Shown one piece after another: positions 6 through 13,333 of a DNA stretch of 64,000 nucleotides. Source of the stretch: Acidobacteriota bacterium. GTDB taxonomy: Bacteria > Acidobacteriota > Vicinamibacteria > Marinacidobacterales > Marinacidobacteraceae. The notes under the pieces are model-generated. The model was not told the DNA's origin, ran no database searches, and saw nothing but the letters and a program-made list of their open reading frames with translations. Numbering within the stretch: position 1 is the first letter of the stretch; each line of letters starts with the position of its first letter. The position numbers and the translations under genes are program-made. The stretch covers positions 17,831 to 81,830 of the forward strand of contig JAJEAO010000005.1 in assembly GCA_022822745.1 (NCBI GenBank), given 5' to 3'.

Positions 6-1928
6 GTGATCGCCGGCAACTCGCTCTTCGGCGTGGCTGACCGAGACTTGGTGATCTCGCCGGGGACCTTCGAGGCCGCCGGGCTCCGCCAGTGGCTTGA
101 TCTCGCGAGCGACGCCGCGGCCGAAGTTGCTGAAGGGCTTGATCGTACGAGGCAGGAGTATTCCCGAAGTGAGGCAGCCGACAAGAGCGCCAAGAGGGCT
201 CTGTCGGGGCTTGCCCGCGTGTACGACTTGTGGGCGGCGGAGTCGTTCGGCCACTTCGGCGGACGCCACCTGATCGAGCGCTACGGTGCAAGGATTGCTA
301 CGGAGACGTTGCACCCGGACCGGGAGGCGGAGATCGCGGCGGCGCAGGCCACCGCGGAGAAACACCGGTTCCTCCACTGGCCGCTGGCTTTCCCGCTCCA
401 GTTCCACCGGGACCGACCCGGATTCGACGCCGTGGTCGGGAATCCGCCATGGGAGGAGGTCACGATTGAGGAACTCGGGTTCTATGTGCTCTACCAGCCG
501 GGGCTGAACTCGATGCCGGAGGCGGAACGGGAACAGGCGATCACCGAACTTCTCCAGCGGCGGCCGGAACTAACGGAGCGCTTCGAAGACGAACAGGAGC
601 GCGTCGCAGCGGCGCGCGCCGCGCTCGCGGCTAGCGGCTATGCCTCGACCGTGGGCGACCCGGATCTCTACAAGTCCTTCTGCCAGCGCTACCGGGCGCT
701 CCTGCGGCAGGGCGGACGCCTGGGCGTGGTGCTGCCTCGGTCGGCATTCAACGCGAAGGGATCAAGGGCTTTCCGGAAGTGGCTCCATCGTGAGACCACG
801 GTCGAGCGCGTGGACTTCCTGCTGAACAAGGGGCGTTGGGCTTTCGACGCGGAGCCGCGCTATTCGGTGGGCCTCCTTGCCGCCCGAAACCAGGTGCCCG
901 CCTCGAAGCACCGCATCGAGATCGCGGGCGTGGCGGACTCTCCGGAGGCCTGGGAGGAGCAAGGGACGCTCCCGGGGGTCCGCATCCCCGACTCGGGGCT
1001 CGGGCCGGACCTCCAGATCCCGCTGCTCGAATCCCAGGCGGAAGCCGATCTTCTCGCCAAGCTGCGTCGGGGGACGCCGTTCCCGCTCGGCGGCGGCCGC
1101 TGGCGCTGCTTCGCCGTCCGGGAACTCGACGAGACGAACGACAAGCGGCTCTGGAACGCCGTCGTCCGGTCCGACGCGACGCTTCTGCCCCTGTGGAAGG
1201 GTGAGAGCTTCGATCAGTACGACCCGCACGGGGCCGGGGAGCGGCGCTGCCCGGACAGCGAGGCGCTCCAACGGAAGATCCGGAAGCCGCGTCCGGGCAG
1301 CGGCCAGCTTGTCGGCAAGAAGATAAGCCTTGCAGTGCGGCGGCGGGCGGTGCTTCGAGAACTCCAACGGGCGCGGGTGGCATTCCGGGATGTGACGAAC
1401 CGCACGAACTCACGAACGGTCCTTGCTTGCTTGGTCCCACCGCGAACGCTCCTGACGAACACGGCTCCCTATGTTGCTTTCGTGGGCGAGGAGGAGATCG
1501 CTCAGTCTGCTGCACTGGGTGTGATGAACAGTCTGACATTCGACTGGCAGGCGCGGCGATACGTCGAAATCCACATGAGCTTCTTCCTGCTGAACTCACT
1601 CACGATCCCCAACCTTGATCACGAGGACTTCGCAGCCATCGCGGAATCCGCAGCACGGCTCTCCGCGCCAGACGAGCGCTTTGCCGACTTTGCCGCTACC
1701 ACCGGGGTCGAGGTCCGCGACCTGTCCGAGGAGGAGCGACAGCGCCTCCGGGTTGACATCGACGCCCGGGTGGCGCGCGCCTGGAATCTGAACCTGGACG
1801 ACCTCGAAGTCATGCTCGACGACTTCACGGAGCGGGCCGTTCCGCCTGCCTACCGCACTGCCCTTCGCCGCAGGCTGCGAGAGCTTCGCGACGGGGCCGA
1901 TTCGGGCGCCGCCGGGAGGACTCCCTGA
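6..1928 (+). CDS. N6-adenine DNA methyltransferase, C-terminal ~640 aa (5-prime end cut by the window edge); DrmMI / PglX / type IIG-like
   Basis: ORF is open to the window start. Motif IV DAVVGNPPW (gamma-class amino-MTase) lies ~140 aa in, followed by a long C-terminal region. Its TGA stop overlaps the next ATG (TGATG). GC3 bias is weaker than in neighbouring native genes. Confidence 0.7.
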   Translation: MIAGNSLFGVADRDLVISPGTFEAAGLRQWLDLASDAAAEVAEGLDRTRQEYSRSEAADKSAKRALSGLARVYDLWAAESFGHFGGRHLIERYGARIATETLHPDREAEIAAAQATAEKHRFLHWPLAFPLQFHRDRPGFDAVVGNPPWEEVTIEELGFYVLYQPGLNSMPEAEREQAITELLQRRPELTERFEDEQERVAAARAALAASGYASTVGDPDLYKSFCQRYRALLRQGGRLGVVLPRSAFNAKGSRAFRKWLHRETTVERVDFLLNKGRWAFDAEPRYSVGLLAARNQVPASKHRIEIAGVADSPEAWEEQGTLPGVRIPDSGLGPDLQIPLLESQAEADLLAKLRRGTPFPLGGGRWRCFAVRELDETNDKRLWNAVVRSDATLLPLWKGESFDQYDPHGAGERRCPDSEALQRKIRKPRPGSGQLVGKKISLAVRRRAVLRELQRARVAFRDVTNRTNSRTVLACLVPPRTLLTNTAPYVAFVGEEEIAQSAALGVMNSLTFDWQARRYVEIHMSFFLLNSLTIPNLDHEDFAAIAESAARLSAPDERFADFAATTGVEVRDLSEEERQRLRVDIDARVARAWNLNLDDLEVMLDDFTERAVPPAYRTALRRRLRELRDGADSGAAGRTP

Positions 1929-4900
1929 TGGCTCGGCCCGAGCTCGTGGACAACCGCGGGGCGAACACTCACGCCCACGCCCTCCACGCGCTCGCGGACG
2001 ACCACGATTCACGCCACCCGCTGGCCGCGGCCACCGCGTACTTCAACCTCATCGGGCTCCACCACCTCGCGCAGGCTACGCGGGATGGGCGATCCGGGCG
2101 GCTCCTCCTCGGCACTTCCCGCCCCACTGGAGGGAAGTCCAGCACCCTCGACGTCTTCGGCGCCTGCATGGAGGAGTTTCGTCGGGATCGAGACCACGCC
2201 TCGTTCCCGCCCAGCCGCGCCTCGAAGACTCTGAGCGACGTGCTGGCCTGGCTTCAGCGCGACGACATCGAGGTCCGCCGCTATCTGAAGCAGTTCCTTC
2301 ACGGCAAGGCTTATCTTCTTGGCGAGATCGCTGACGCCCGCGCGGCGCTGGTCACCTCGGCGAACCTGACCGCCGCCGGACTCGCCCGGAACCTCGAGCT
2401 GGGCGTCGCCGACTACCAGCCCCACGTCGCCCGCAGCGCCATCGAGTGGTTCGACCGTCTGTGGGAGGAGGCGCCCGATTTCAAGGGAGACCTCATCGAA
2501 ATTCTCGGCAGCGCCCGTCTGAATCTGGAGGATCCGTGGACGGTCTTCCTCCGGGCGCTGCTCGAACTCTTCGGGGACGACGAGGAGGAGATCGCCAAGC
2601 CCGGGAAGGTGAACCTCGCGCCGTTCCAGTGGGACGGCTATCGCCGCGCTCTCAAGATCCTCCGCCGCCACCACGGCGTGGTCTTCGCCGACGGCGTGGG
2701 CACCGGCAAGACCATGATCGGCCTCGCCTTCCTCGAGGAGTACGCACTGCGCCGGGGCCAGCTCGCGATCGTCATCGCCCCCGCCCAGCTCCGCGAGCGC
2801 TGGCAGGACGACATTGCCCAGCGTGGACTGCCAGCCAAGGTGCTGAGCTACCACGAGCTGGCCTCCGACATCCAGCTCGCCCCGAAGGATGTCGCGAACC
2901 GCAAGCGCCACCTCTCCGCCGACAAGGACGCCTACCGCCTCGTCCTCGCCGACGAGGGCCACGCGTTCCGCAACCCGGGCACGACCTGGCACCGGGCGCT
3001 CTCCCGCCTGCTCGGCGGCGAGCCGAAGGATCTGGTGCTCCTCACCGCGACGCCGATCAACAACGGTCTCTGGGACCTCTACCACCTGGTCATGGCGTTC
3101 GCCCGCCACGATCGGGCCTTCGCCAACTGGCGTATCCCCTCGCTCCGGGAGCTGTTCGAGCGCGCCGGAGCGAGTGCGCGGAAGGCCGCGGATCTCGACC
3201 CCGATGTTCTCTTCGCGCTCGCGGATCTGGTGAGCGTCCGCCGTGATCGGCGTTTCCTCGTCGAGCGCTACAAGGGCGAGACTTTCCCCGATGGCACGGT
3301 CGTCCGCTTCCCCGAGCCGGAGCTGCATACCGCCCGCTACGACCTCGATTCGGCGGATCCCGGTCTCGTCCCCACGATCACCGAGGCGATCGAGGGGCTC
3401 ACCATGGCCCGTTACGTCCCGAGCCGCTATCTCGTCGCCGGGAACGAGTCGAAGCGGGAGGGGCAGCTTTCCGGGCTGCTCCGCTCCGGCATCCTGAAGC
3501 GCTTCGAGTCCTGCTGGCATGCCTGCCGGCTCACCGTGAAGAGGATGATGCGGGCGCACGAGGCCTTTCTCGTGGCCTGGGACGAGGGTTGGGTGCTCGG
3601 AGGGCAGGCGCTCAAGGAGGCGGCGGAAGGAGAGGAAGAGGTTTCGGGCCTGGCCGAGACGCTGGCCGAGGACAGCTTCGGCGACGATCGGATCCCCTCG
3701 TCCGAGTTCGATCCCTCCTACCGGAAGGACGTCGAGCGCGATCTGGCCGCGCTCCGGAAGATCGAGGCGCGGCTCGACCGGCTGACCCCGGAGGACGACC
3801 CGAAGCTGGCCTGCCTCACCGACCTGATCGAGAAATCGCCATCGCAGAAAGTCATCGTCTTTTCCACCTTCGCCGACACGATCCGATATCTCGACGAACA
3901 GCTCCCGGAGAAGATCAGGGGCCGCGAGCGCATCACCGTGATCGGCGACGAGGCGGACCCGGACCAGCGCACCGAAATGCTCTCCCGGTTCGCTCCGAAG
4001 TCCGTGATCGGTCCGGACCATCTGCCCGAGGACGGCGAGGTGGATCTGCTCCTCAGCAACGATGTCCTCTCCGAAGGTCAGAACCTCCAGCAGGCCGCCG
4101 CGGTCATCAGCTACGACATGCCGTGGAACCCGCAGCGCGTCGTTCAGCGCTACGGGCGGGTCATCCGGCTGAAGAGCGAGCACAGGCGCGTCTTCCTGAC
4201 CACCATGCTTCCCGCGCCGGGAGAACTCGAACCCATCCTGAAGCTGGAAGTCGCCATCCGACGCAAGATGGCGGCGGCGGGCGTTTACGGGATGGAGGTG
4301 GAGGTCGTCGAGGATGCGCCGGCGTCGGAAGTCCGCGCCTTCGCCGATCGCCTCCAGGCGGGAGACGCTTCGCTCCTCGACGAGGCCGCGGATGGCGACG
4401 AGGGCCAGTTGTTCAGCGGCGAGGGACTTCGCGCCGAGCTGGCCCGCTGGATCCACGAAATGGGGATCGAGAAGTTGAAGAAGCTGCCGTGGGGGACGGG
4501 AGCGGTGTTCCAACGCCAGTCCGACGACCCGCGCCGCGAGGAGGGGGGCTGGTTCTTCGCCTGCCGCACGCGAAGGGACGAGCGCTACTGGCGCTGGGTG
4601 GAGCGCGATCGTTCCACCCGACCCGAGCCCGACGCCGCCATCCTGCGCCGCATCCACCCGCGCGGTGCGGAGGGCCTGATGGACGGCGACTACCAGCCCG
4701 ACGAAGCGCTCGAAGCGGCCTGGAGCGCAGCGGCGGCCTCCATCGTCTCCGAACACAACGGACTGGTGGAGGCGGCGGAAGACGGTGATTCCATCGGTCC
4801 GCTCCAGACCTGGGCGATCCGGGACATCCTCGAGGATCCGGATGTGCGCCTGCCCGACGGGGCGAACGCTGCCGCCGAAGCGCTCGCAGTCGGACGCGGC

Positions 4901-5107
4901 ACGATCGTCCGCCGCGCGCTGGGCGCGATCCGGAAGCGCGTGGAGAGCCGGGAGATCACGAGAGACCGCGCGGCCATCGAGATCGTGGAGCTGGTGCGAA
5001 CCGAAGGGCTGCGGCCGGTGGAGGAGCTCGCGCGACTCGAACCGATCACCGAGGAGGATCTGGGCGTCGTCTGCTGGATGGAGATCCGCCCCACCGACCC
5101 GACCTGA
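1928..5107 (+). CDS. PLD/HKD-type nuclease domain fused to an SNF2-family (DEGH-box) helicase
   Basis: N-terminus has FLHGKAYLL...ALVTSANLTAAGL, which parallels the HxK...GSxN PLD/Nuc motif. Helicase motifs: GVGTGKT (I), LVLADEGHAFRN (II), LLTATPINNGLWDLYHL (III), VIVFSTF (IV), LLSNDVLSEGQNLQ and QRYGRVIRL (V/VI). Confidence 0.85.
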   Translation: MARPELVDNRGANTHAHALHALADDHDSRHPLAAATAYFNLIGLHHLAQATRDGRSGRLLLGTSRPTGGKSSTLDVFGACMEEFRRDRDHASFPPSRASKTLSDVLAWLQRDDIEVRRYLKQFLHGKAYLLGEIADARAALVTSANLTAAGLARNLELGVADYQPHVARSAIEWFDRLWEEAPDFKGDLIEILGSARLNLEDPWTVFLRALLELFGDDEEEIAKPGKVNLAPFQWDGYRRALKILRRHHGVVFADGVGTGKTMIGLAFLEEYALRRGQLAIVIAPAQLRERWQDDIAQRGLPAKVLSYHELASDIQLAPKDVANRKRHLSADKDAYRLVLADEGHAFRNPGTTWHRALSRLLGGEPKDLVLLTATPINNGLWDLYHLVMAFARHDRAFANWRIPSLRELFERAGASARKAADLDPDVLFALADLVSVRRDRRFLVERYKGETFPDGTVVRFPEPELHTARYDLDSADPGLVPTITEAIEGLTMARYVPSRYLVAGNESKREGQLSGLLRSGILKRFESCWHACRLTVKRMMRAHEAFLVAWDEGWVLGGQALKEAAEGEEEVSGLAETLAEDSFGDDRIPSSEFDPSYRKDVERDLAALRKIEARLDRLTPEDDPKLACLTDLIEKSPSQKVIVFSTFADTIRYLDEQLPEKIRGRERITVIGDEADPDQRTEMLSRFAPKSVIGPDHLPEDGEVDLLLSNDVLSEGQNLQQAAAVISYDMPWNPQRVVQRYGRVIRLKSEHRRVFLTTMLPAPGELEPILKLEVAIRRKMAAAGVYGMEVEVVEDAPASEVRAFADRLQAGDASLLDEAADGDEGQLFSGEGLRAELARWIHEMGIEKLKKLPWGTGAVFQRQSDDPRREEGGWFFACRTRRDERYWRWVERDRSTRPEPDAAILRRIHPRGAEGLMDGDYQPDEALEAAWSAAAASIVSEHNGLVEAAEDGDSIGPLQTWAIRDILEDPDVRLPDGANAAAEALAVGRGTIVRRALGAIRKRVESREITRDRAAIEIVELVRTEGLRPVEELARLEPITEEDLGVVCWMEIRPTDPT

Positions 5108-5183
5108 CCCGGTCGAGCCGGCGTCGGCGGCCTGCAAGGGTTGCCGCGGGGCTATCCTCACGCTTCCCGTCGGAAGTTCCGCG

Positions 5184-6389
5184 ATGAAGGTCCAGGTGAA
5201 TCCCGAGCTCCTTGTGTGGGCCCGGCGCACGGCGGGACTGGGGGTCGAGGAGGCGGCTCACCTGCTCCGGTTCGAGGACACCCGACGCCGAACAGCGGCG
5301 GAGCGGCTGGCCAGTCTCGAACGAGGGGCCGAGGCGCCGTCCCTTTCGGTGCTCGATCGGATGGCGCATCGCTACCACCGGCCTGTCCTCGCGTTCTACC
5401 TCGAGCACGCTCCCGAAGAAGAGGAGAGCGCCGCGCGGCTTCGTTCCGCCCCCGGAGACCTGACTCGCCGGGAGGCCGGCTTGCTGGATGCCTTTGTCCG
5501 ACGAATGCGCGAGCGCCAGCGTCTGCTGCGTGAGGCGCTCGAGGACGGTGAAGAGGGTGAGGTCGTCCCGTGGGTGGGGTCGGCGGATGTCCGCGACGGC
5601 GCGACGGCGCTCGCGGCTCGCATCCGTCGCCTTCTCGATCTGAATCTCACCGAGTTCCGCTCCCGGCGCGATGCGAGAGCAGGGTTCGAGTGGCTCCGGG
5701 GGAAGGTCGAGACCACCAGAGCGGTTGTTCTGCTCGAAGGCGACCTGGGCTCCCACCAGACGGCGCTAGAGCTCCACGTATTCCGCGGCCTCTCGCTTGC
5801 CGATCCGGTGGCGCCATTCATCGTCATCAATCCGGGGGACGCGGACGCTGCCTGGTCGTTCACGCTGCTCCACGAGCTGACGCACCTCGTTCTGGGACAG
5901 AGCGAGTTCGCGAGTCTGACGAGCGACGACCGCATCGAACGTCTTTGCAACGACGTGGCTGGGGAGCTGCTCGTGCCAGCGCGGGACCTTCAGGGACTCG
6001 GGCCGATGCGCGCACGCGATCTGGATCAGCTCCGCGACAGCATCTCGGATCTGGCCCAAGCCTGGCGCGTCAGCCGTTCGATGGTCGCCTACCGCATGTT
6101 CCGCACCGGGCTCATTCACCGCGATGAATTCCTATCGCTCCTGAGCACCTTCGAGCGGCGCTGGCAGAAAGCCAAGGAAGCTCGAAGAGCCGCGAATCGT
6201 ACGCGCCCGAGTGGTCCGGATTTCTATGCGGTGCGGCGCTATCGCTTGGGAAAGGCGATGATCCGACGGACGAAACGGTTGTGGCGGAGCGGGTCGTTGT
6301 CCACGACAGAGGCCGGGCGGATCCTCGGTGTGCGTGGCGGCAGCGTTCACGCTCTACTGGATGTCGCGAGCGAGCGAGCACGACGTTGA
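5184..6389 (+). CDS. HTH (XRE-like) + ImmA/IrrE-family zinc metallopeptidase regulator
   Basis: ATG at 5184 lies inside the longer track ORF 4785..6389, whose upstream part overlaps the helicase 3-prime end and looks non-coding. HEXXH motif in LLHELTHLVLGQSEF; helix-turn-helix-like N-terminal segment. Confidence 0.75.
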   Translation: MKVQVNPELLVWARRTAGLGVEEAAHLLRFEDTRRRTAAERLASLERGAEAPSLSVLDRMAHRYHRPVLAFYLEHAPEEEESAARLRSAPGDLTRREAGLLDAFVRRMRERQRLLREALEDGEEGEVVPWVGSADVRDGATALAARIRRLLDLNLTEFRSRRDARAGFEWLRGKVETTRAVVLLEGDLGSHQTALELHVFRGLSLADPVAPFIVINPGDADAAWSFTLLHELTHLVLGQSEFASLTSDDRIERLCNDVAGELLVPARDLQGLGPMRARDLDQLRDSISDLAQAWRVSRSMVAYRMFRTGLIHRDEFLSLLSTFERRWQKAKEARRAANRTRPSGPDFYAVRRYRLGKAMIRRTKRLWRSGSLSTTEAGRILGVRGGSVHALLDVASERARR

Positions 6390-6593
6390 TCTATCTTCTG
6401 GACGAGAACTTCGGACTGGAGGAATCCGTGACGCATGAATGGGAAGGGCTCCGCGATGACAAAGCTGATTCTGCTGTGGCGCGTCAATCAGGGTGAGACG
6501 AGCGCGACAAACAGGATAGGACGGAGTCGGACGGTCGGCGGAGTCGTGAGCCGTCGTTGAGGGGGCTCGCGACAAGGACGACCGGACGGCGCT

Positions 6594-6614
6594 GAGCCCC
6601 GGCTCGCCGGGGCT
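6594..6614 (+). terminator. GC-rich hairpin (agccccggc-tcg-ccggggct) downstream of the ImmA/IrrE gene; possible intrinsic terminator without a U-tract
   Basis: Perfect 9-bp stem seen in the sequence; no T-run follows. Confidence 0.25.
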
Positions 6615-6632
6615 TCTCCGCCGGGGTCGGGG

Positions 6633-9600
6633 GTGTGTGGCGCGCCGGGATGGGCGTGTTGGCGGGAGGGTGAAGCCGGGTTGGAGGCGGGGCGCATACC
6701 ATCGCGCCATGTCGTGGCGGCGCGGGGGGAAGCGCAGGGCGCGGATCCGCGAGAGGGCGGCTCCGTGACGCAACTCGGTGTGCGTCCGGACTCGGGCCGC
6801 AGCCGGTCCGAGCCGGCGTCATCCACCCCCGGCGTTCTGGTCCAGGAGCTGGATCGCATCGCGCGGGAAACCGGGAGAGCCCGCAAGATCCTGATCGGTC
6901 GCACGCGTGGCGAGGGGAAGGAGCTGCTGCGGCAAGTGGCGCTGCGTGGCCGCTCGTGGACGGGGTTCGAGGTCGAGACGTTACGACCCTTCGCTTCCCG
7001 AATCGCTGCGCCCCGCCTCGCCCGGGATGGCCTCGCGGTGATGGATTCGGTCGACGAGCACGCTCTCGTCGAGCGCGCCCTGGACTGCGTGATCCCGCGC
7101 TTCCCCGACTTCTCGGAACTCGCGGAGAAGACCGGGTTCCGGGAGGCGGTGCGCCACTCGGTGGCGGCGCTGCGAAACGCCGGCGTCCGGCCGGACGCCG
7201 TGGAGCCCCGTGGCGGAGATTCGCAGGGGTTCGACAAGACCTCGCTGGTGACGCAGGTTCTGGCGGCGTACGAGTCTCTGATGCGGGAGGCGAACCGAAC
7301 GGACACGGCGGGGATCCTCCGGAGGGCGACCCGGAGTCTCGACGGCGGCGAGCGCCCTCGCTGGCTCGCGGATGCCCGGATCTTCCTGCTCCCCGGGCTT
7401 CCCGACCGGGGACTCGAGAGAGGCTTTCTGGCTGCACTGCAGGGCCTCGGGGCGGAAGTTCTCCGGACCGACGCTGTGGAGGGCCTGAATGTCCCGGATG
7501 GAGTCCTCTGGGAGGCGGCGCCGCCGGAATCCTGGGGCAGTTGGCTCCACGCCGTGGATCGGTGCGAGGCGGGCGCTCGGTCCGACCGCATCGAGCTGTT
7601 CCGCGCGGCTTCGGTTTCCGACGAGTTGCGAGGTGTGCTGCGAAGGGCGCTGGACATGGGAGCCCGCTGGGATCAGGTCGAGATCGTCGCCGCCGACCCC
7701 TGGTCGTACGGGTCGGCGCTCCACGCGGTGGCTGAGGCGAAGGAGATCCCGGTCAACTTCGCGGTCGGCCTGCCGGTCGAGCGAACCCGTCCCGGAAGGG
7801 TCGTCTCGACCTGGTTCCGCTGGATCGAGAGCGGTTTCCAGGAGTCGCTCTTCCGGGCGCTCGTCGAGGCCGGCGATGTGACGCCGCCGGGGAAGACGCG
7901 ATCCAGGGGGTTGTATGGCCCGTCTCTTGCCCGGGCGCTGCGGCGGCTCCGGATCGGGTGGGGCAGGGAACGAACGCTCGAGAGGATCGAGCAGGGGCTC
8001 GAGGGCGTCAGCGCGCTTCGGCCCAAGCCCACCGAGAGCGAGGCGAAGTTCGAGGAACGCAGGAAGTGGGAGCGCAGGAAGTGGGAGCGCAGGAAGTTGA
8101 TGGCGCTGCGGGACCTTCTCCGTCCCGTGCTCGAGGCGACGCCGGCGACCGACGGTCAGGCCTCGCCGTCCGAGGTTGCGAGCGGCGTGAAGAGTCTGCT
8201 GAAGCGAGCGACAAGCGGCACCGCCACCGACGGCATGGCGAGGCAGCGGCTCCTGGGTCAACTCGATCGCATCGAGGCCACGTTGACGCGTCCCACCGAC
8301 TTCGCTTCGGCCTGCGCGATCGTCCAGGCCCGCCTCCAGATCCGCATCCCGGCGCCGGGAACGAAGGGGCTGGCGCGGTGGAGCACTGCGCCCGGCGCCA
8401 TCTACCTGACGGATCGGCGGCATGGAGGCGCCACCGGCCGCCGCTTCACCTTCATCGTCGGTCTCCATGCGCGGTCCGTGGTCGGCTCGCTCCACGAAGA
8501 TCCGCTGCTCGGCGACGAGGAACGGCGTCGCATCGGCGAGGGTGAACTGCCGCTCGCGTCTGACCGGGCGGATGAGGCCCGCTTCGACTTCGCCCAGCTC
8601 TTCGCTCGATTGCGGGGCACGGTCGTCGTCAGCTACCCGTGCTGGGATCCCGTCCAGAGCAGGAAACTGGCGCCGGCTCCCGAAATGCTTCAGGCGCTTC
8701 GGCTTCGCGAGTGCGATGCGGCCCTCGGCTTCGAGAAGCTGGAGAAGGCAATCGGCGTGGCCGAGTCGCGTGCGCCGCGTCAAGAAATCACCGCCGACCT
8801 CGACCGCAGCGATGCGTGGCTACGCGCTCTCACGAGGGAGCCAGGCCGATTCCGCGACGGACTGGCTGCCGTTTCGCGATCGTTTCCCCAGCTTGGCGCG
8901 GGCCTCGCCGTCGCTCGGGCCCTCGAGCGCGACGAGCCGTCGGTGCATACCGGTTTTCTCGGTGTCCATTCTCCGCCTCTCCCCTACCAGGATGTCTCGG
9001 GCTGGAAGTTCTCGGCGAGCGGTCTCGAGACCCTGGGTACCTGTCCCCGACGCTTTCTCTTCAAGTACATCATCAAGGCGTATCCGCCCGACGACCCCGA
9101 GTTCGATCCCGGCCGGTGGCTGAATGCGCTAAAGAAGGGAGGACTGCTTCATCGGGTGTTCGAGAAGACACTCAAAAAGGCTCGGTGCCGCGGGATCGAA
9201 CCTCTCGACTCCCAGTTTGAGATTCTTGCTCAAAAGGTGCTGGCGCTCGAGGGTCAGAAGGAGCTCCGGAACACACCTTCCCCGAGCCAGGCGGTGCACC
9301 GCTGGCAGATGGAGGAACTCCAGGAGGACGCTCGCTCCTTCGTCGAGATGATTCGCAAGCGGGAGCCGCAGTGGCTGAAGCTCGAATGGCCGTTCGGGCG
9401 GGACACGGATCTGAAGATCCAGGCCGGGCGTCGGTCCGTTCTAGTGCGCGGTTCCGTGGACCGGGTTGACGACCATGGCAGTCACCTGCTCGTGGTGGAC
9501 TACAAGACCGGCAGCGATTACAAGTACCAAGGTGAAACCAAGACCCACGACGGTGGACGGCGCCTGCAGCACTTCCTGTACGCCCGCGTGGTGGCCGACG

Positions 9601-9932
9601 AAATGGATCCTGTGGACGCCATGGAGTACCACTTTCCCACCGTCAAGGGCGAGAATCGGATCCGGCGCTACGAGGCCTCGCAACTCCACACAGGTGGCGA
9701 CCTCGTCGAAACTCTCCTGGAGGGCGTGGAGGAGGGATCGTTTCCCGCCACGGATGCCCATGAGGACTGCAGGTTCTGCGACTACAAGGAGAGCTGCGGC
9801 GTTCAGACCGACAAGCGGGGTAATGCGGTTGGCGGCATCCCCGATTGGACGAAACGCAACAAGACATCCGTCGCCGCGCTGGAGCGGTTGCGGAACGTGC
9901 GCGACTGGGACAAGAAGAAGACAGCTTCGTGA
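6633..9932 (+). CDS. addB: AddB-like helicase-nuclease subunit (RecB-type PD-(D/E)xK nuclease with C-terminal Cys cluster)
   Basis: 1099 aa. Degenerate P-loop-like GRTRGEGKE near the N-terminus. C-terminus has VDRVDDHG...LLVVDYKTGSDYKY...EDCRFCDYKESCG. Exact start uncertain: GTG at 6633, or GTG near 6765. Confidence 0.7.
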   Translation: MCGAPGWACWREGEAGLEAGRIPSRHVVAARGEAQGADPREGGSVTQLGVRPDSGRSRSEPASSTPGVLVQELDRIARETGRARKILIGRTRGEGKELLRQVALRGRSWTGFEVETLRPFASRIAAPRLARDGLAVMDSVDEHALVERALDCVIPRFPDFSELAEKTGFREAVRHSVAALRNAGVRPDAVEPRGGDSQGFDKTSLVTQVLAAYESLMREANRTDTAGILRRATRSLDGGERPRWLADARIFLLPGLPDRGLERGFLAALQGLGAEVLRTDAVEGLNVPDGVLWEAAPPESWGSWLHAVDRCEAGARSDRIELFRAASVSDELRGVLRRALDMGARWDQVEIVAADPWSYGSALHAVAEAKEIPVNFAVGLPVERTRPGRVVSTWFRWIESGFQESLFRALVEAGDVTPPGKTRSRGLYGPSLARALRRLRIGWGRERTLERIEQGLEGVSALRPKPTESEAKFEERRKWERRKWERRKLMALRDLLRPVLEATPATDGQASPSEVASGVKSLLKRATSGTATDGMARQRLLGQLDRIEATLTRPTDFASACAIVQARLQIRIPAPGTKGLARWSTAPGAIYLTDRRHGGATGRRFTFIVGLHARSVVGSLHEDPLLGDEERRRIGEGELPLASDRADEARFDFAQLFARLRGTVVVSYPCWDPVQSRKLAPAPEMLQALRLRECDAALGFEKLEKAIGVAESRAPRQEITADLDRSDAWLRALTREPGRFRDGLAAVSRSFPQLGAGLAVARALERDEPSVHTGFLGVHSPPLPYQDVSGWKFSASGLETLGTCPRRFLFKYIIKAYPPDDPEFDPGRWLNALKKGGLLHRVFEKTLKKARCRGIEPLDSQFEILAQKVLALEGQKELRNTPSPSQAVHRWQMEELQEDARSFVEMIRKREPQWLKLEWPFGRDTDLKIQAGRRSVLVRGSVDRVDDHGSHLLVVDYKTGSDYKYQGETKTHDGGRRLQHFLYARVVADEMDPVDAMEYHFPTVKGENRIRRYEASQLHTGGDLVETLLEGVEEGSFPATDAHEDCRFCDYKESCGVQTDKRGNAVGGIPDWTKRNKTSVAALERLRNVRDWDKKKTAS
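8058..8102 (+). repeat. In-frame tandem 15-bp repeat (cgcaggaagtgggag, 2 full copies + 1 partial) encoding ERRKWERRKWERRKL inside the addB-like gene
   Basis: Direct tandem copies read from the sequence. Confidence 0.6.
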
Positions 9933-12900
9933 GCGACGAGCGATCCGGACTCCGGTCGGTGACTGAGCGGTCCGTCACGCCTCGACGCCCAACGGCCCGG
10001 TACAGCGAACCCGGTGAGTCTCGCACCGACGTAGTCCCGGATGGGGAGGCGCGACGGCGCATCCGCAAGAACCTGGAGCGCAACTTCCTCGTGGAGGCGG
10101 GGGCGGGCTCAGGCAAGACGAAGTCGCTGGTGGACCGCATGGTGGCTCTGGTGAGCAGCGGCGCCTGTCAGGTGGAGGACATCGCAGCGGTTACCTTCAC
10201 GCGCATGGCTGCAGCGGAACTCCGCCAGCGCTTCCAGGAGGAACTGGAGAAGAAAATCGAGTGCGCGCACAAGCGCTCCCAAGCGGATGATCGGAAGCGC
10301 CTCGAACGAGCGCTCCGGAACATCCACCAGGCGTTTCTCGGAACCATCCACGCCTTCTGCGCCAGGCTGCTGCGCGAGCGACTGGTGGAGGCAGGGCTGG
10401 CTCCGGATTTCCGGGAACTGGAGGAGACCGAAGCGGAGCGCTCGAAGCAGGTGTTCTGGAACGACTTCCTGGAGAAGCTGGCGGTGAATGAGGATCCCGT
10501 TCTGCTCAAGCTCAAGCGCTTGGGGATCCGCCCCAGCACGCTTCAGGGAGCCTTCGGCAGCTTGGTCGAGAATCCGGACGTGGATTTCGTCGCCGAGAGG
10601 GTCGAGCGGCCGGATCCGGATGATGTCGCGGCGCTACGGGCCGAATTCGATGCTCTCCTCTACCGGGCAGAGGTGATGATGGAGGGCCTGCAGCCCAAGG
10701 AAGGGTGGAAGTCCCTTGGACAGGGATTCCGCACGGCGCTGTATTGGCACCGGTCGCCGAACTGGAAGGATCCGGCGGTCTTCTTTGAGGTCGTTGCCAA
10801 GTTTCACAGGATCAGAGAGAAGGAGACTGGGAAAATCCTGACGCTGAAACGGTGGGCCCGCACTCGCTCCGGCCAAAAAGAGGCGAAGAAGCTGGCCGAG
10901 GATTCCCAGGCCTTCGGGTGTAAGGCGGACAAACTGCTACGACAGTGGTGGGCTTACCGATATCCGGTGGCGGTGGATCTGGCCGGCAGGGCGGCGGAAG
11001 AGTACGCGTACGAGCGGAAGGCTCGGGGCGAGGTCACGTTCGACGATTTGCTCGTTTTCTCCACCGAGCTGCTTCGCAAGAACGACGAGGCGCGCCGCGA
11101 TCTGGGGCGCCGCTACCCGCGGATCCTCGTGGACGAGTTCCAGGACACCGATCCGCTGCAGGCCGAGATCCTGCTTCTCCTGTCCAGCGACCCCGAGTCG
11201 GGTGACGACTGGAGGAGAGTCACTCCCCGGCCCGGTTCGCTCTTCGTCGTCGGTGATCCCAAGCAGAGCATCTACCGATTCCGCCGCGCCGACATCTCGC
11301 TCTACGAGATGGTGAAGCGCCGCTTCAAGAAGTTCGGCGAGGTCCTGCGCCTCGAAGCGAACTTCCGCTCGCTGCCGGACTTCGAGAAACTGGTGGAGGG
11401 CGTCTTCAACGATGGGCAGCACTTCCCGAGCGCGAGTTCAGACCGCCAGGCCTCGTTTGCGCCGCTGCGGGCCCAGATGCAAGGGCGCGGTCTGCTGGCC
11501 GCCTACCGGGTTCAGGGCGCGAACCAGGACGATGTCGCCGAGGACGATGCCGCCCGCATCGCCTCTGAGATTTCGCGGCGGGTTCGATCGGGAGAGCGTC
11601 GGCCCGGCGCGTTCATGATCCTGACCGGGCGACGCAAGTTCCTGTCGGTTTATGTTCGAGCGCTCGAGAGGCGCAACCTCCCGGTCGAGGTGTCGGGCGC
11701 GGGCGTGGGTTTCGAGGACGAGTCGCGGGCGTTTCTGACGCTCTTCCGGTGTCTGGCGGACCCCCAGCACGAAGTGCACGTTCTTTCGGTGTTGACTGGG
11801 CCCTTCTTTGGCATGACCCTCGACCGCATCGTGCGGTACAGGGACAGCGGTGGCTCGCTTGTCGCCGATTGCCGGCCGGAGGGCGACTGCGAGGTCGCAG
11901 AGGCGATCGGGAGTCTCCACCGGTGGTGGTGTCTTGCGCGCCGCGAGCCCGCGGACATCACGGCCGAGAGGCTCGTGGAGAAGATCGGCCTCTTCCCCCT
12001 CGCGGCGGCGGCGCCCTTGGGAGGGATGCGTGCCGGGACTCTGGCGTACCTGCTGGACGCCGTGCGGGACCGGGCGCGAGCGGGCGATTCCTCGCTCGCG
12101 GGCGCCGTGGACGCCATGGAGACAGCGCTCGAAAACAAGGAAGCCGAACCGTCGTTGATCCCGACGCAGCCCGATTGCGTGCGCGTCCTGAATCTGCACC
12201 GCGCCAAGGGTCTCGAAGCTGACGTGGTCTTCCTGGCCGCGCCGTTTGGCGCCTCCGATCCCGATCCGCGGATGCACGTGTCGCGCCGTGAAAAGGGCAG
12301 CCCCGAAGGCCATCTGGCCGTCGGACTCAAGGTCCGATTTTCGTGGGAGACCATCGCGCAGCCCCTCGACTGGGAGGAGAAGAAGCGCAAGGAGGTGGAG
12401 TTCGCGAAGGCGGAACAGATCCGGCTGCTCTATGTCGCGGCGACGCGCGCAAGGCACGAACTCTGGATCGCGTGCCGCCCCGCCGAGATGTCCTGGCAGT
12501 CGAGGCCGTCACCGTGGGCGGATGTGGAGGAATGGGTGGTGGAGAGGGCCGGCAAGGACCGAGAGGCGGACTCGTCGTGCCACTGCGTTGTCCTGGACGA
12601 ACTGCCGAAGGACTGCGTGCCCAAGCCGGCCCGCCTGGAACCCGGGGAGGGTCTCACCGGGAGGATCAGGGCTGCCAAGGCGGGGGTGCGTCGGAGCCGC
12701 AAGGCGACCTACGCCGTGGAGAAGGTCACGGACCTGGCGAAACAGAACCGGCCGGAGGGAGAGGTCAACGTCTCCACGGAGCCGAGGGAGGCCGATACGG
12801 ACGACAAGGCTCACGCGCCGCTCGATCCCGGAACCAGGGGACGCGAATGGGGCACCGTAGTGCACGAGGTGCTTGCCGAGGCGGGCGAGGGGGTCGAAAG

Positions 12901-13333
12901 GGAAGCGCTGGAAGCGTTCGCCCGCGCCCGCCTCGTCGAGCGCGAGCGCCCGCTGGATCGGACCGGAGCGCCGACCGAGCTGGCCGCCCTCCTGGATCTG
13001 GTGGAGCGGGTGCGCGAGATGGACATTTGGAAGCGCGCCATGGCCAGCAAGGAACGCCACACCGAAATGCCCTTCGCCGTGCACCGGCCGCGCCCCGATG
13101 GCGGCCCCGGGGTTCTCGAAGGCGTGATCGACCTCGTCTTCCGGGAAGGGGACCACTGGGTGGTGGCCGACTACAAGACCGACCGTGGCGACGACCCCGG
13201 TTTTCTCGCCAGGACGGGCAGGCACCGCGCGCAGGTGGACCTCTACGCGGAATGCTGGGAACAACTCACCGGCGAAGTCGTCGGCGAGCGGGCGCTGGTT
13301 TACACCTCGCAGGGAAGGACCAGCACCTGGTGA
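9929..13333 (+). CDS. addA: AddA-like UvrD-family helicase with C-terminal RecB-type nuclease domain
   Basis: Walker A GAGSGKT, motif II ILVDEFQDTDPLQ, C-terminal VIDLVFREGDHWVVADYKTD (PD-(D/E)xK). Proposed GTG start overlaps the addB-like stop (GTGA). The track ORF opens at 9845, but that would overlap addB by 88 nt. Confidence 0.75.
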   Translation: MSDERSGLRSVTERSVTPRRPTARYSEPGESRTDVVPDGEARRRIRKNLERNFLVEAGAGSGKTKSLVDRMVALVSSGACQVEDIAAVTFTRMAAAELRQRFQEELEKKIECAHKRSQADDRKRLERALRNIHQAFLGTIHAFCARLLRERLVEAGLAPDFRELEETEAERSKQVFWNDFLEKLAVNEDPVLLKLKRLGIRPSTLQGAFGSLVENPDVDFVAERVERPDPDDVAALRAEFDALLYRAEVMMEGLQPKEGWKSLGQGFRTALYWHRSPNWKDPAVFFEVVAKFHRIREKETGKILTLKRWARTRSGQKEAKKLAEDSQAFGCKADKLLRQWWAYRYPVAVDLAGRAAEEYAYERKARGEVTFDDLLVFSTELLRKNDEARRDLGRRYPRILVDEFQDTDPLQAEILLLLSSDPESGDDWRRVTPRPGSLFVVGDPKQSIYRFRRADISLYEMVKRRFKKFGEVLRLEANFRSLPDFEKLVEGVFNDGQHFPSASSDRQASFAPLRAQMQGRGLLAAYRVQGANQDDVAEDDAARIASEISRRVRSGERRPGAFMILTGRRKFLSVYVRALERRNLPVEVSGAGVGFEDESRAFLTLFRCLADPQHEVHVLSVLTGPFFGMTLDRIVRYRDSGGSLVADCRPEGDCEVAEAIGSLHRWWCLARREPADITAERLVEKIGLFPLAAAAPLGGMRAGTLAYLLDAVRDRARAGDSSLAGAVDAMETALENKEAEPSLIPTQPDCVRVLNLHRAKGLEADVVFLAAPFGASDPDPRMHVSRREKGSPEGHLAVGLKVRFSWETIAQPLDWEEKKRKEVEFAKAEQIRLLYVAATRARHELWIACRPAEMSWQSRPSPWADVEEWVVERAGKDREADSSCHCVVLDELPKDCVPKPARLEPGEGLTGRIRAAKAGVRRSRKATYAVEKVTDLAKQNRPEGEVNVSTEPREADTDDKAHAPLDPGTRGREWGTVVHEVLAEAGEGVEREALEAFARARLVERERPLDRTGAPTELAALLDLVERVREMDIWKRAMASKERHTEMPFAVHRPRPDGGPGVLEGVIDLVFREGDHWVVADYKTDRGDDPGFLARTGRHRAQVDLYAECWEQLTGEVVGERALVYTSQGRTSTW

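Follow-up and report, generated by a model that had tools for sequence, protein, structure and literature searches.

A VapB52-like antitoxin gene left without its toxin gene, 3′ of a methyltransferase–helicase pair in Vicinamibacteria

Gene content of the locus

The whole stretch of DNA analyzed in this study (64,000 nucleotides, hereafter referred to as the window) carries the following genes and intervening features in the region of interest:

6–1928, + strand: gene of an Eco57I/type IIG-like N6-adenine methyltransferase (MTase), 3′ part, cut by the start of the window (genomic context)
1928–5107, + strand: gene of a PLD(HKD)+SNF2 helicase, 1059 aa (genomic context, profile matches)
5108–5183, + strand: gap of 76 nt between the helicase stop codon and the antitoxin start codon (promoter, terminator and repeat scans)
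5184–6389, + strand: VapB52-like antitoxin gene, 401 aa, with a predicted XRE-type HTH, an M78 peptidase and a helical C-terminal domain (sequence, alignment, AF2, Foldseek)
6386–6496, + strand: remnant of a DUF4411/VapC52-like toxin gene, a 36-codon ORF (BLASTN against the related locus L005, reading of the sequence)

The 401-aa reading frame extends from the ATG at 5184 to the TGA at 6387–6389 on the + strand. A longer ORF starting with a GTG at 4785 was considered an artefact, because the ATG at 5184 fits the N-terminus conserved among over 500 homologues (MKVQVNPE or MPxVNPE). A distance of 76 nt separates the gene from the stop codon of the helicase gene (5107), which has the same orientation, and the initial annotation of the locus was therefore right to place it 3′ of the MTase–helicase pair. 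At its full length, in locus L007, the MTase comprises 1313 aa.

Domain organization of the encoded protein

The following domains and motifs were assigned within the antitoxin gene:

5184–5408, + strand: predicted N-terminal XRE-type HTH domain, approx. aa 1–75 (AF2 helices 7–72, Foldseek, alignment with PDB 9vzy)
5439–5444, + strand: L86-R87, aligned with the FR motif (F75-R76) of VapB52 (alignment)
5871–5885, + strand: HExxH zinc-binding/catalytic motif, H230 E231 L T H234 (Pfam, alignment)
5937–5939, + strand: E252, third zinc ligand, equivalent to E245 of VapB52 (alignment)
6216–6374, + strand: predicted C-terminal helical domain (CTD), approx. aa 345–397 (alignment with the VapB52 CTD, AF2 helices)

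The middle part of the protein matches the Peptidase_M78 family (PF06114; aa 206–305, E 2e-12, 47.4 bits against a cutoff of 22), and residues H230, E231, H234 and E252 are unchanged across an alignment of 34 diverse homologues. The N-terminal HTH of the 401-aa protein itself gave no Pfam match at E<0.01; precomputed matches to PF01381 (HTH_3) and PF13560 (HTH_31) are available for its homologues. In the AlphaFold2 model (mean pLDDT 89.8, pTM 0.85), the five-helix N-terminal domain resembles DdrO, SinR, CylR2 and the controller proteins of restriction-modification (RM) systems (C.Csp231I, C.BclI and C.Kpn2I in the Foldseek list; probability approx. 1.0, TM(target) 0.6–0.8), and the middle domain resembles IrrE/PprI (Foldseek probability 1.0).

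The M78 score, the intact H230/H234/E252 triad and the HTH recognized by AF2, Foldseek and the alignment with 9vzy all agree with the original description of the product as a single polypeptide that joins an XRE-HTH to an ImmA/IrrE (HExxH) peptidase. With E-values of homologues reaching down to 1e-228, the predicted HTH–M78 feature at 5184–6389 stands far above chance.

Relation to VapB52 of Mycobacterium tuberculosis

A phmmer search with the full-length protein retrieved PDB entry 9vzy_A, labelled "HTH cro/C1-type domain-containing protein" (E 1.8e-11; residues 6–378 of the query aligned with 3–370 of the chain). The copy of the PDB library searched with Foldseek apparently did not contain 9vzy, and the link to this entry thus comes from the sequence search. 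Entry 9vzy was deposited for VapBC52 (Rv2515c/Rv2514c), to which 9vzz also belongs (Singh et al., NAR 2026; PMC13273310).

P0121 (415 aa) matches 9vzy with 100% sequence identity and shares 28% identity with the 401-aa protein (BLASTP, E 1e-15). A 153-aa DUF4411 gene starts 6 nt 3′ of P0121, and the same holds for the M. avium orthologue; the DUF4411 protein of L005 is in turn 28% identical to VapC52 (E 8e-13). The mycobacterial VapBC52 locus is a stand-alone toxin–antitoxin (TA) system with neither an RM neighbor nor an MTase plus HKD/SNF2 pair. By these alignments, the 401-aa protein is homologous over its full length to VapB52 of M. tuberculosis (Rv2515c, PDB 9vzy).

VapB52 is described as consisting of an HTH-like N-terminal domain (NTD), a middle M78 peptidase domain that includes an HTH motif of its own, and a CTD of four helices (PMC13273310). 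The 401-aa protein follows this order, with an XRE-like NTD, an M78 zinc peptidase in the middle, likewise with an internal HTH motif, and a helical CTD. One VapB52 molecule binds a VapC52 dimer, its NTD resting on the outer face of the toxin and its CTD covering the active site (PMC13273310), and the CTD of the 401-aa protein, as aligned, seems equivalent to this toxin-occluding domain. The VapB52 peptidase is reported to be activated by ssDNA, to lose its activity in the H216A/H220A mutant and, once activated, to remove its own NTD; the conserved FR motif (F75-R76) at the junction of the NTD and the middle domain was proposed as the probable cut site (PMC13273310). VapC52 cleaves tRNA, confers phage resistance in M. 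smegmatis and can be neutralized by several non-cognate VapB antitoxins, which rescue cells from its toxicity (PMC13273310). The toxicity of Rv2514c and its rescue by Rv2515c had been reported in earlier work based on TASmania (PMC6504116), and in the VapBC52 paper the fold of the NTD is likened to that of RM controller proteins (PMC13273310).

At the position of the FR motif, 90% or more of the family have F, and R is invariant; both the 401-aa protein and its L005 homologue have L-R. In the alignment, A243 takes the place of the cysteine-switch residue of VapB52 (C229, the fourth zinc ligand), and among the 34 aligned homologues no cysteine occurs in the family loop GQ[ST]GxSG; the control of autoinhibition and activation may therefore differ from that of VapB52.

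The conserved partner of the antitoxin gene

In close relatives, the M78 gene is followed by a gene encoding a DUF4411 protein (PF14367, PIN-like) of approx. 170 aa, at a distance ranging from a 4-nt overlap to 12 nt. Such a gene lies directly 3′ in L005 (91% identical), L090 (80%), L091 (72%) and L006–L009 (59%). L005 originates from another metagenome.

We then considered 80 loci from GTDB species genomes, fetched with the family alignment, in which DUF4411 was sought among six-frame ORFs with jackhmmer and HMM searches. The state of the gene was as follows:

65 loci of 80: DUF4411 intact, directly downstream
7 loci of 80: truncated
3 loci of 80: split by a frameshift
3 loci of 80: absent
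2 loci of 80: state hidden by a contig end

An intact DUF4411 partner is thus present in 65 of the 78 assessable loci (that of L010 was confirmed separately with Pfam), and the DUF4411/PIN toxin gene is the sole conserved neighbor across the 80 genome loci. In approx. 13 of the 78, the toxin gene is decayed or lost beside a full-length antitoxin gene. TA systems tolerate loss of the toxin and do not tolerate loss of the antitoxin alone; should the toxin be encoded by the downstream gene, loss of that gene beside an intact antitoxin gene is therefore to be expected, and the observed one-sided loss fits this assignment. Both genes of the pair are truncated in locus L024.

None of the PADLOC 2.0 models matched the DUF4411 proteins, and the VapB52-like/DUF4411 pair is therefore not catalogued as a defence system in that collection.

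Deletion of the toxin gene in the window

Comparison with L005 by BLASTN revealed two collinear blocks (L005 1–4109 corresponding to window 2304–6412, and L005 5099–9659 corresponding to window 6622–11161), between which the body of the DUF4411 gene (L005 approx. 4107–4576) is missing from the window. The missing segment comprises approx. 470 bp, which is not a multiple of three. The 36-codon remnant retains the TTG start and the first 8 codons (LIYLLDEN, from 6386) and then continues, out of frame, into the last approx. 25 nt of the gene, with the deletion junction near 6409/6410. The window likewise lacks a small RHH-like ORF that comes after DUF4411 in L005.

Four independent contigs, which come from two samples and two assembly pipelines, share the junction region with 100% identity, and the junction is therefore not an assembly artefact. 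An HMM search of the whole 64 kb window detected no DUF4411 gene. A deletion of approx. 470 bp has thus removed the toxin gene and left the antitoxin solo, without an effector; the gene at 5184–6389 is a member of the VapB52 family by descent and is not part of a complete TA system.

Mosaic structure and state of the antitoxin gene

The identity between the antitoxin gene and its L005 counterpart is 98–100% over the 5′ approx. 600 nt and 76–92% in the 3′ part, where it drops toward the 3′ end, the CTD being the most diverged section of the gene. The shift is also apparent from the substitution rates relative to L005:

5750–5900, no strand: recombination breakpoint zone within the antitoxin gene (shift in identity to L005, from 98–100% before the zone to 78–93% after it)
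Codons 1–200: approx. 99% nucleotide identity; dS approx. 0.02 (codons 1–130), no synonymous change (codons 131–200)
Codons 201–305: dS 0.28
Codons 306–397: dS 0.66

Of the flanking genes, that of the helicase is 96–100% identical to its counterpart in L005, and the AddB-like gene located downstream is 89% identical. Since identity changes sharply at approx. 5750–5900, the block comprising the MTase gene, the helicase gene and the 5′ part of the antitoxin gene has been exchanged recently between lineages. The crossover took place within the antitoxin gene, whose 3′ half, coding for the toxin-occluding CTD, goes with the downstream allele; this argues that the 3′ half and the toxin evolve as a unit, separate from the helicase.

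The antitoxin gene departs from the consensus in 3 of 109 strongly conserved columns, a value typical for the family, and contains no frameshift, premature stop codon or loss of a catalytic residue. Its product is probably still folded and catalytically competent, and possibly responsive to ssDNA. The dN/dS ratio relative to L005 (0.25 for the gene, approx. 0.2 within its diverged part) mostly reflects divergence of the recombinant 3′ allele that preceded the deletion, and as such can neither date the deletion nor serve as a measure of later constraint. The intact solo gene could have been kept for another role.

Genes located upstream

Homologues of the MTase and HKD/SNF2 genes were found upstream of the antitoxin gene only in the window, L005–L010 and L091; among the 80 genome loci, L010 (labelled Vicinamibacteria) is the single case. 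The linkage is hence limited to one narrow clade of Vicinamibacteria, in which the genes follow one another as MTase, HKD/SNF2, antitoxin and toxin at 59–100% identity and in at least two to three flanking contexts. Locus L090, 80% identical, has no helicase gene upstream.

No other neighbor family is common to more than 13 of the 80 loci. Pfam analysis of 77 immediately upstream genes yielded SecA (11 genes), RpsB (3), N6_Mtase (3) and SNF2 (1), in addition to single cases such as AlaS, ThiC, Dxs and NadE, so that outside the clade the upstream genes are mostly of the housekeeping type. Type I RM genes occur within 10 kb in approx. 8–9 of the 80 loci, in 6 of them directly upstream and on the same strand. 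We consider this a tendency to reside in defence islands, not an obligate link.

The upstream pair was also compared with DISARM. This assignment was rejected, as the matches to DrmD-, DrmC- and DrmMI-like models were far below the NCBIfam cutoffs, and neither DrmA nor DrmB is present in the visible region.

The initial annotation had regarded the gene as a switch of the MTase–helicase module. This proposal is not supported in a family whose conserved partner is DUF4411 and which has the MTase and HKD/SNF2 genes upstream in 1 of 80 loci. Within the Vicinamibacteria lineage itself, some functional coupling of the four genes is conceivable.

Search for regulatory signals

The gap between the helicase and antitoxin genes had been put forward as a place where a promoter or an operator might be found. 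No sigma-70 consensus promoter and no intrinsic terminator was predicted between 4800 and 6900, an outcome that carries no information in an acidobacterial genome of high GC content. A scan of positions 5050–5260 detected no inverted repeats within the gap (5108–5183) and a single weak pair of 9-nt repeats (5053–5061/5082–5090) inside the 3′ end of the helicase gene. A test of k-mer enrichment in the 150 nt that precede the gene in 68 family members did not reveal a shared operator, the only signal being lineage-specific (the 3′ end of secA in Caldilineaceae), and Rfam models gave nothing at E≤1 in the region 4900–6900. Consequently, neither element was located in the gap by the consensus, inverted-repeat and k-mer scans.

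Inspection by eye revealed a CTTCC-N4-GGAAG motif just before the ATG, as well as a TATCCT box. Both are conserved in the nearest relatives alone and were set aside as regulatory evidence. By these scans, the antitoxin gene may or may not be co-transcribed with the helicase gene.

Origin and possible role of the solo gene

The reading that we favor, with a probability of approx. 0.75, is that the gene encodes a VapB52-type antitoxin of an autonomous TA cassette whose toxin gene has been deleted, and that it is not a dedicated switch of the MTase–helicase pair. The homology, the domains, the conservation of the partner, the deletion and the mosaicism were observed directly; the mechanism is carried over by homology from VapBC52 of M. 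tuberculosis, across approx. 28% identity. In the intact system, one antitoxin molecule would clamp a dimer of the DUF4411/PIN RNase encoded downstream, its NTD bound to the outer side of this dimer and its CTD blocking the active site. Upon exposure to ssDNA, the peptidase would cut off its own NTD, probably at the FR motif, and the released toxin would cleave tRNAs and thereby arrest growth. The two-gene cassette is autonomous and mobile, residing beside many unrelated genes, and its position 3′ of the MTase and HKD/SNF2 genes in one Vicinamibacteria lineage represents co-location in a defence island, not a dedicated regulatory link. In the window, where the toxin is missing, the original output, i.e. 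toxin release, is gone.

Two suggestions made for the gene in the initial annotation can be retained in part. Triggering by stress or phage is in line with the ssDNA-triggered self-cleavage of the VapB52 homologue described in the VapBC52 paper (PMC13273310), but the output is the release of a toxin and not the transcription of neighboring genes. A function resembling abortive infection describes the intact family well; with the toxin gene deleted, it cannot operate in the window.

It is possible, although we regard it as a tentative explanation, that the solo gene no longer has a function, being left over from a TA system inactivated recently and bound to decay, and that its adjacency to the MTase–helicase pair is meaningless. 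The loss of the toxin gene, accompanied by that of the RHH-like ORF seen in L005, and the degraded pairs present in other lineages (L024, with both genes truncated, among them) are consistent with such a fate. However, the gene has so far suffered no frameshift, premature stop codon or loss of a catalytic residue.

We consider it unlikely that the solo antitoxin has been retained for anti-addiction, i.e. as a cross-neutralizer of homologous or non-cognate PIN toxins encoded by mobile elements or elsewhere in the genome. The intact ORF with its conserved residues and the recurrence of solo antitoxin genes (approx. 13 of 78 loci) would agree with this role, and cross-talk is known in the opposite direction, since rescue from VapC52 by several non-cognate VapB antitoxins is reported in the VapBC52 paper (PMC13273310). 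Nevertheless, there is no second DUF4411 gene within the 64 kb window, and the intactness of the gene may only reflect a recent deletion, the dN/dS relative to L005 being a record of pre-deletion history.

We are similarly skeptical of the idea that the HTH-protease acts as a signal-triggered derepressor of the MTase and HKD/SNF2 genes, following the logic of ImmR/ImmA, CapH/CapP or C proteins, and was for this reason retained after the loss of the toxin. The gene is intact and lies on the same strand as the helicase gene, 76 nt 3′ of it, with no terminator predicted in between; the four-gene order is kept in the Vicinamibacteria clade at 59–100% identity; type I RM genes immediately precede the antitoxin–toxin pair in approx. 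6 further loci of the 80; and the M78 domain has a weak PADLOC match to CapP (E 7.8e-9). Against this stand the 79 of 80 genome loci that have neither an MTase nor an HKD/SNF2 neighbor and whose upstream genes are mostly housekeeping ones, the 80% identical L090, which lacks the helicase, and the mycobacterial prototype, a stand-alone TA system with no RM neighbor. The position of the gene is also unfavorable to a regulatory role: known regulators of defence modules (CapH/CapP, BrxR, C proteins) are located upstream of, or divergently from, their module, whereas this gene lies downstream. Finally, the breakpoint is placed inside the gene, its 3′ half evolving with the toxin and apart from the helicase, and no shared operator was detected by the repeat scan or the 68-member k-mer test.

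Highly improbable, in our opinion, is a single co-inherited defence cassette of Vicinamibacteria, composed of the MTase, HKD/SNF2, an ssDNA-sensing HTH-protease and DUF4411, in which the protease would couple restriction at the DNA level, a source of ssDNA or fragments, to an abortive backstop that cleaves tRNA, and would have been kept here after the loss of the toxin to regulate or assist the MTase–helicase pair.

Comparison with known systems

The preferred reading, that of an antitoxin orphaned from an autonomous cassette, places the gene closest to VapBC52. The similarities comprise the full-length homology of the antitoxin, the order of its predicted domains (HTH-like NTD, M78 with HExxH and Glu, helical CTD), and the gene order of the relatives, in which a DUF4411 PIN gene homologous to that of VapC52 lies 6–12 nt 3′. 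The position of the FR motif is kept in the family, with its invariant R, and reads L-R in the 401-aa protein. The differences are the deletion of the toxin gene at the 5184–6389 locus, the replacement of C229 by A243 in the 401-aa protein, the host (Acidobacteriota/Vicinamibacteria as opposed to Actinomycetota), and the restriction-like MTase and HKD/SNF2 pair that adjoins the gene at 5184–6389 and is absent from the mycobacterial locus. The VapBC52 architecture is widespread well beyond mycobacteria, occurring in Chloroflexota, Proteobacteria, Acidobacteriota, Nitrospinota and others; cassettes of this type have repeatedly lost the toxin while the antitoxin gene stayed full-length. The cysteine switch of VapB52 and CapP is not conserved in the branch of the 401-aa protein, in which activation may work differently.

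A TA system predicted earlier, "Xre-COG2856 (DUF955) + PIN/DUF4411.1", described as three-component (Makarova 2009, PMC2701414; Matelska 2017, PMC5499597), has the same arrangement, with a fused HTH-DUF955 gene upstream of DUF4411.1. The 80 loci fit this prediction, but the copy in the window lacks the DUF4411 component.

RosmerTA and the D25 node of NetFlax combine ImmA-type antitoxins with variable toxins, including PIN-like ones (Millman 2022; Ernits 2023, PMC10440598). RosmerTA resembles the family studied here in its ImmA-type protease antitoxin, often with an N-terminal HTH, its swappable toxins (PIN-like ones included) and its anti-phage role, and RmrA models are the best PADLOC matches of the 401-aa protein. 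However, RmrA matches only the M78 core (aa approx. 204–334, at most 42 bits), and DUF4411 has no PADLOC match. Membership in RosmerTA was rejected on the grounds of this partial match and of the absence of an adjacent RmrT toxin gene at the window locus. The NCBIfam model of the spr1629 antitoxin scored 28 bits with the 401-aa protein, against a cutoff of 335.

ImmR/ImmA of ICEBs1, DdrO/IrrE of Deinococcus and CapH/CapP, a regulator of CBASS, share with the 401-aa protein the M78 peptidase fold and, presumably, the general logic of a damage or ssDNA signal that activates a protease, which removes an HTH domain. There, the target of the protease is an HTH repressor encoded by its own gene, whose cleavage switches on an adjacent operon or a regulon, whereas here HTH and protease are fused, and the characterized homologue cleaves itself and releases a toxin. 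A two-protein repressor/protease switch was also rejected at this locus, as there is no small separate HTH gene adjacent to it and the linkage with the module is confined to L010 and the metagenomic relatives of the clade.

The RM controller proteins C.Csp231I, C.BclI and C.Kpn2I share the XRE fold of the N-terminal domain, and an RM-like module adjoins the gene. In contrast to the 401-aa protein, C proteins have approx. 80–100 aa, contain no protease, are encoded upstream of the nuclease gene or overlapping it, and act on C-box operators. The candidate was rejected as a controller protein, being a 401-aa multidomain protein encoded downstream of the module, with no inverted-repeat operator found. 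In genome annotation, HTH-M78 genes located beside restriction-like genes are easily over-read as the regulators of the latter; the gene at 5184–6389 represents a known, recently characterized kind of TA system, caught here without its toxin.

Probable exchange of the methyltransferase-helicase block

Nucleotide identity between the window and L005, the relative with a 91%-identical antitoxin, is distributed unevenly. In the helicase gene and the antitoxin gene's 5′ half (approx. 2304-5750), the two loci are 96-100% identical. Within 5900-11161, the antitoxin gene shows 78-89% identity over its 3′ half, and the AddB/AddA genes 89%. The drop from 96-100% to 78-89% occurs inside the antitoxin gene, and this sequence pattern points to a horizontal exchange of the restriction-like block in the recent past, with a crossover within the antitoxin gene. 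The features surrounding this gene are as follows:

6-5107: large Eco57I/MmeI-like N6-adenine methyltransferase gene and PLD(HKD)-SNF2 helicase fusion gene
2009-5230 (−): long antisense ORF, 1073 aa, overlapping real genes
6488-7657 (−): long antisense ORF, 389 aa, overlapping real genes
6595-6614: perfect 9-bp GC-rich hairpin, AGCCCCGGC-TC-GCCGGGGCT, lying after the toxin remnant and before the AddB-like gene
6633-13333: AddB-like gene (PD-(D/E)XK, 1099-aa ORF) and AddA/RecB-like gene (UvrD helicase and PD-(D/E)XK)

The two antisense ORFs were rejected as genes, being shadow ORFs of the kind typical where GC content is high; a Pfam scan of the 389-aa ORF gave no match.

Spacer and downstream genes

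In L005, the DUF4411 toxin gene is directly followed by an 86-aa ORF (4622-4882), which looks RHH/CopG-like by sequence and has no Pfam match. When this segment was compared with 6447-6621 of the window, only the first few bases of the ORF (ATGAC...) were found to be retained, the remainder being replaced by unrelated sequence. This is a second difference between the window and L005 within the variable spacer. The hairpin, which is without a proper T-tract, falls just outside the L005-homologous region.

The two large genes that follow look like a housekeeping AddB-like and AddA/RecB-like pair, the AddB start varying among gene callers from 6633 to 6765. The PADLOC matches of these genes to GajB/Cas4 reflect generic domain similarity.

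The antitoxin-DUF4411 pair in other loci

In L090 (957-3616; 80%-identical antitoxin) the pair occurs without the upstream helicase, in whose place lies an unannotated ORF overlapping the start by 4 nt. The pair is followed by a 203-aa fragment that matches the Type ISP C-terminal specificity domain over its last half only, and thus adjoins restriction-modification debris there too.

In 11 Caldilineaceae genomes (L011, L012, L013, L024, L026, L039, L046, L055, L056, L057 and L074) the pair is located immediately 3′ of secA. The DUF4411 gene is apparently degraded in up to eight of these: it carries a frameshift in L011 and L074, is truncated in L024, L039, L055 and L056 (for L039, possibly an artefact of the start codon chosen), and is missing from L026 and L046. 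Most of the genomes retain a full-length antitoxin gene; in L024 both genes are truncated.

Further TA or abortive-infection genes (Fic/DOC, AbiEi/DUF6088 and AbiEii) flank the island in relatives (L010, 1203-2333 and 12376-13047; L091, 3333-4230), a pattern compatible with a defence/TA island in the Vicinamibacteria clade of the window.

Comparison with known systems

The methyltransferase-helicase pair is also present in L007 (2790-9892), where the methyltransferase comprises 1313 aa, and in L010 (2668-9920). It shows similarity to DrmMI/DrmD/DrmC and to the PADLOC "C3a139 HKD+Snf2" model, with every score far under the NCBIfam cutoffs, and neither DrmA nor DrmB was found beside it in the visible region. 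The pair may represent an uncatalogued, two-gene restriction-like system.
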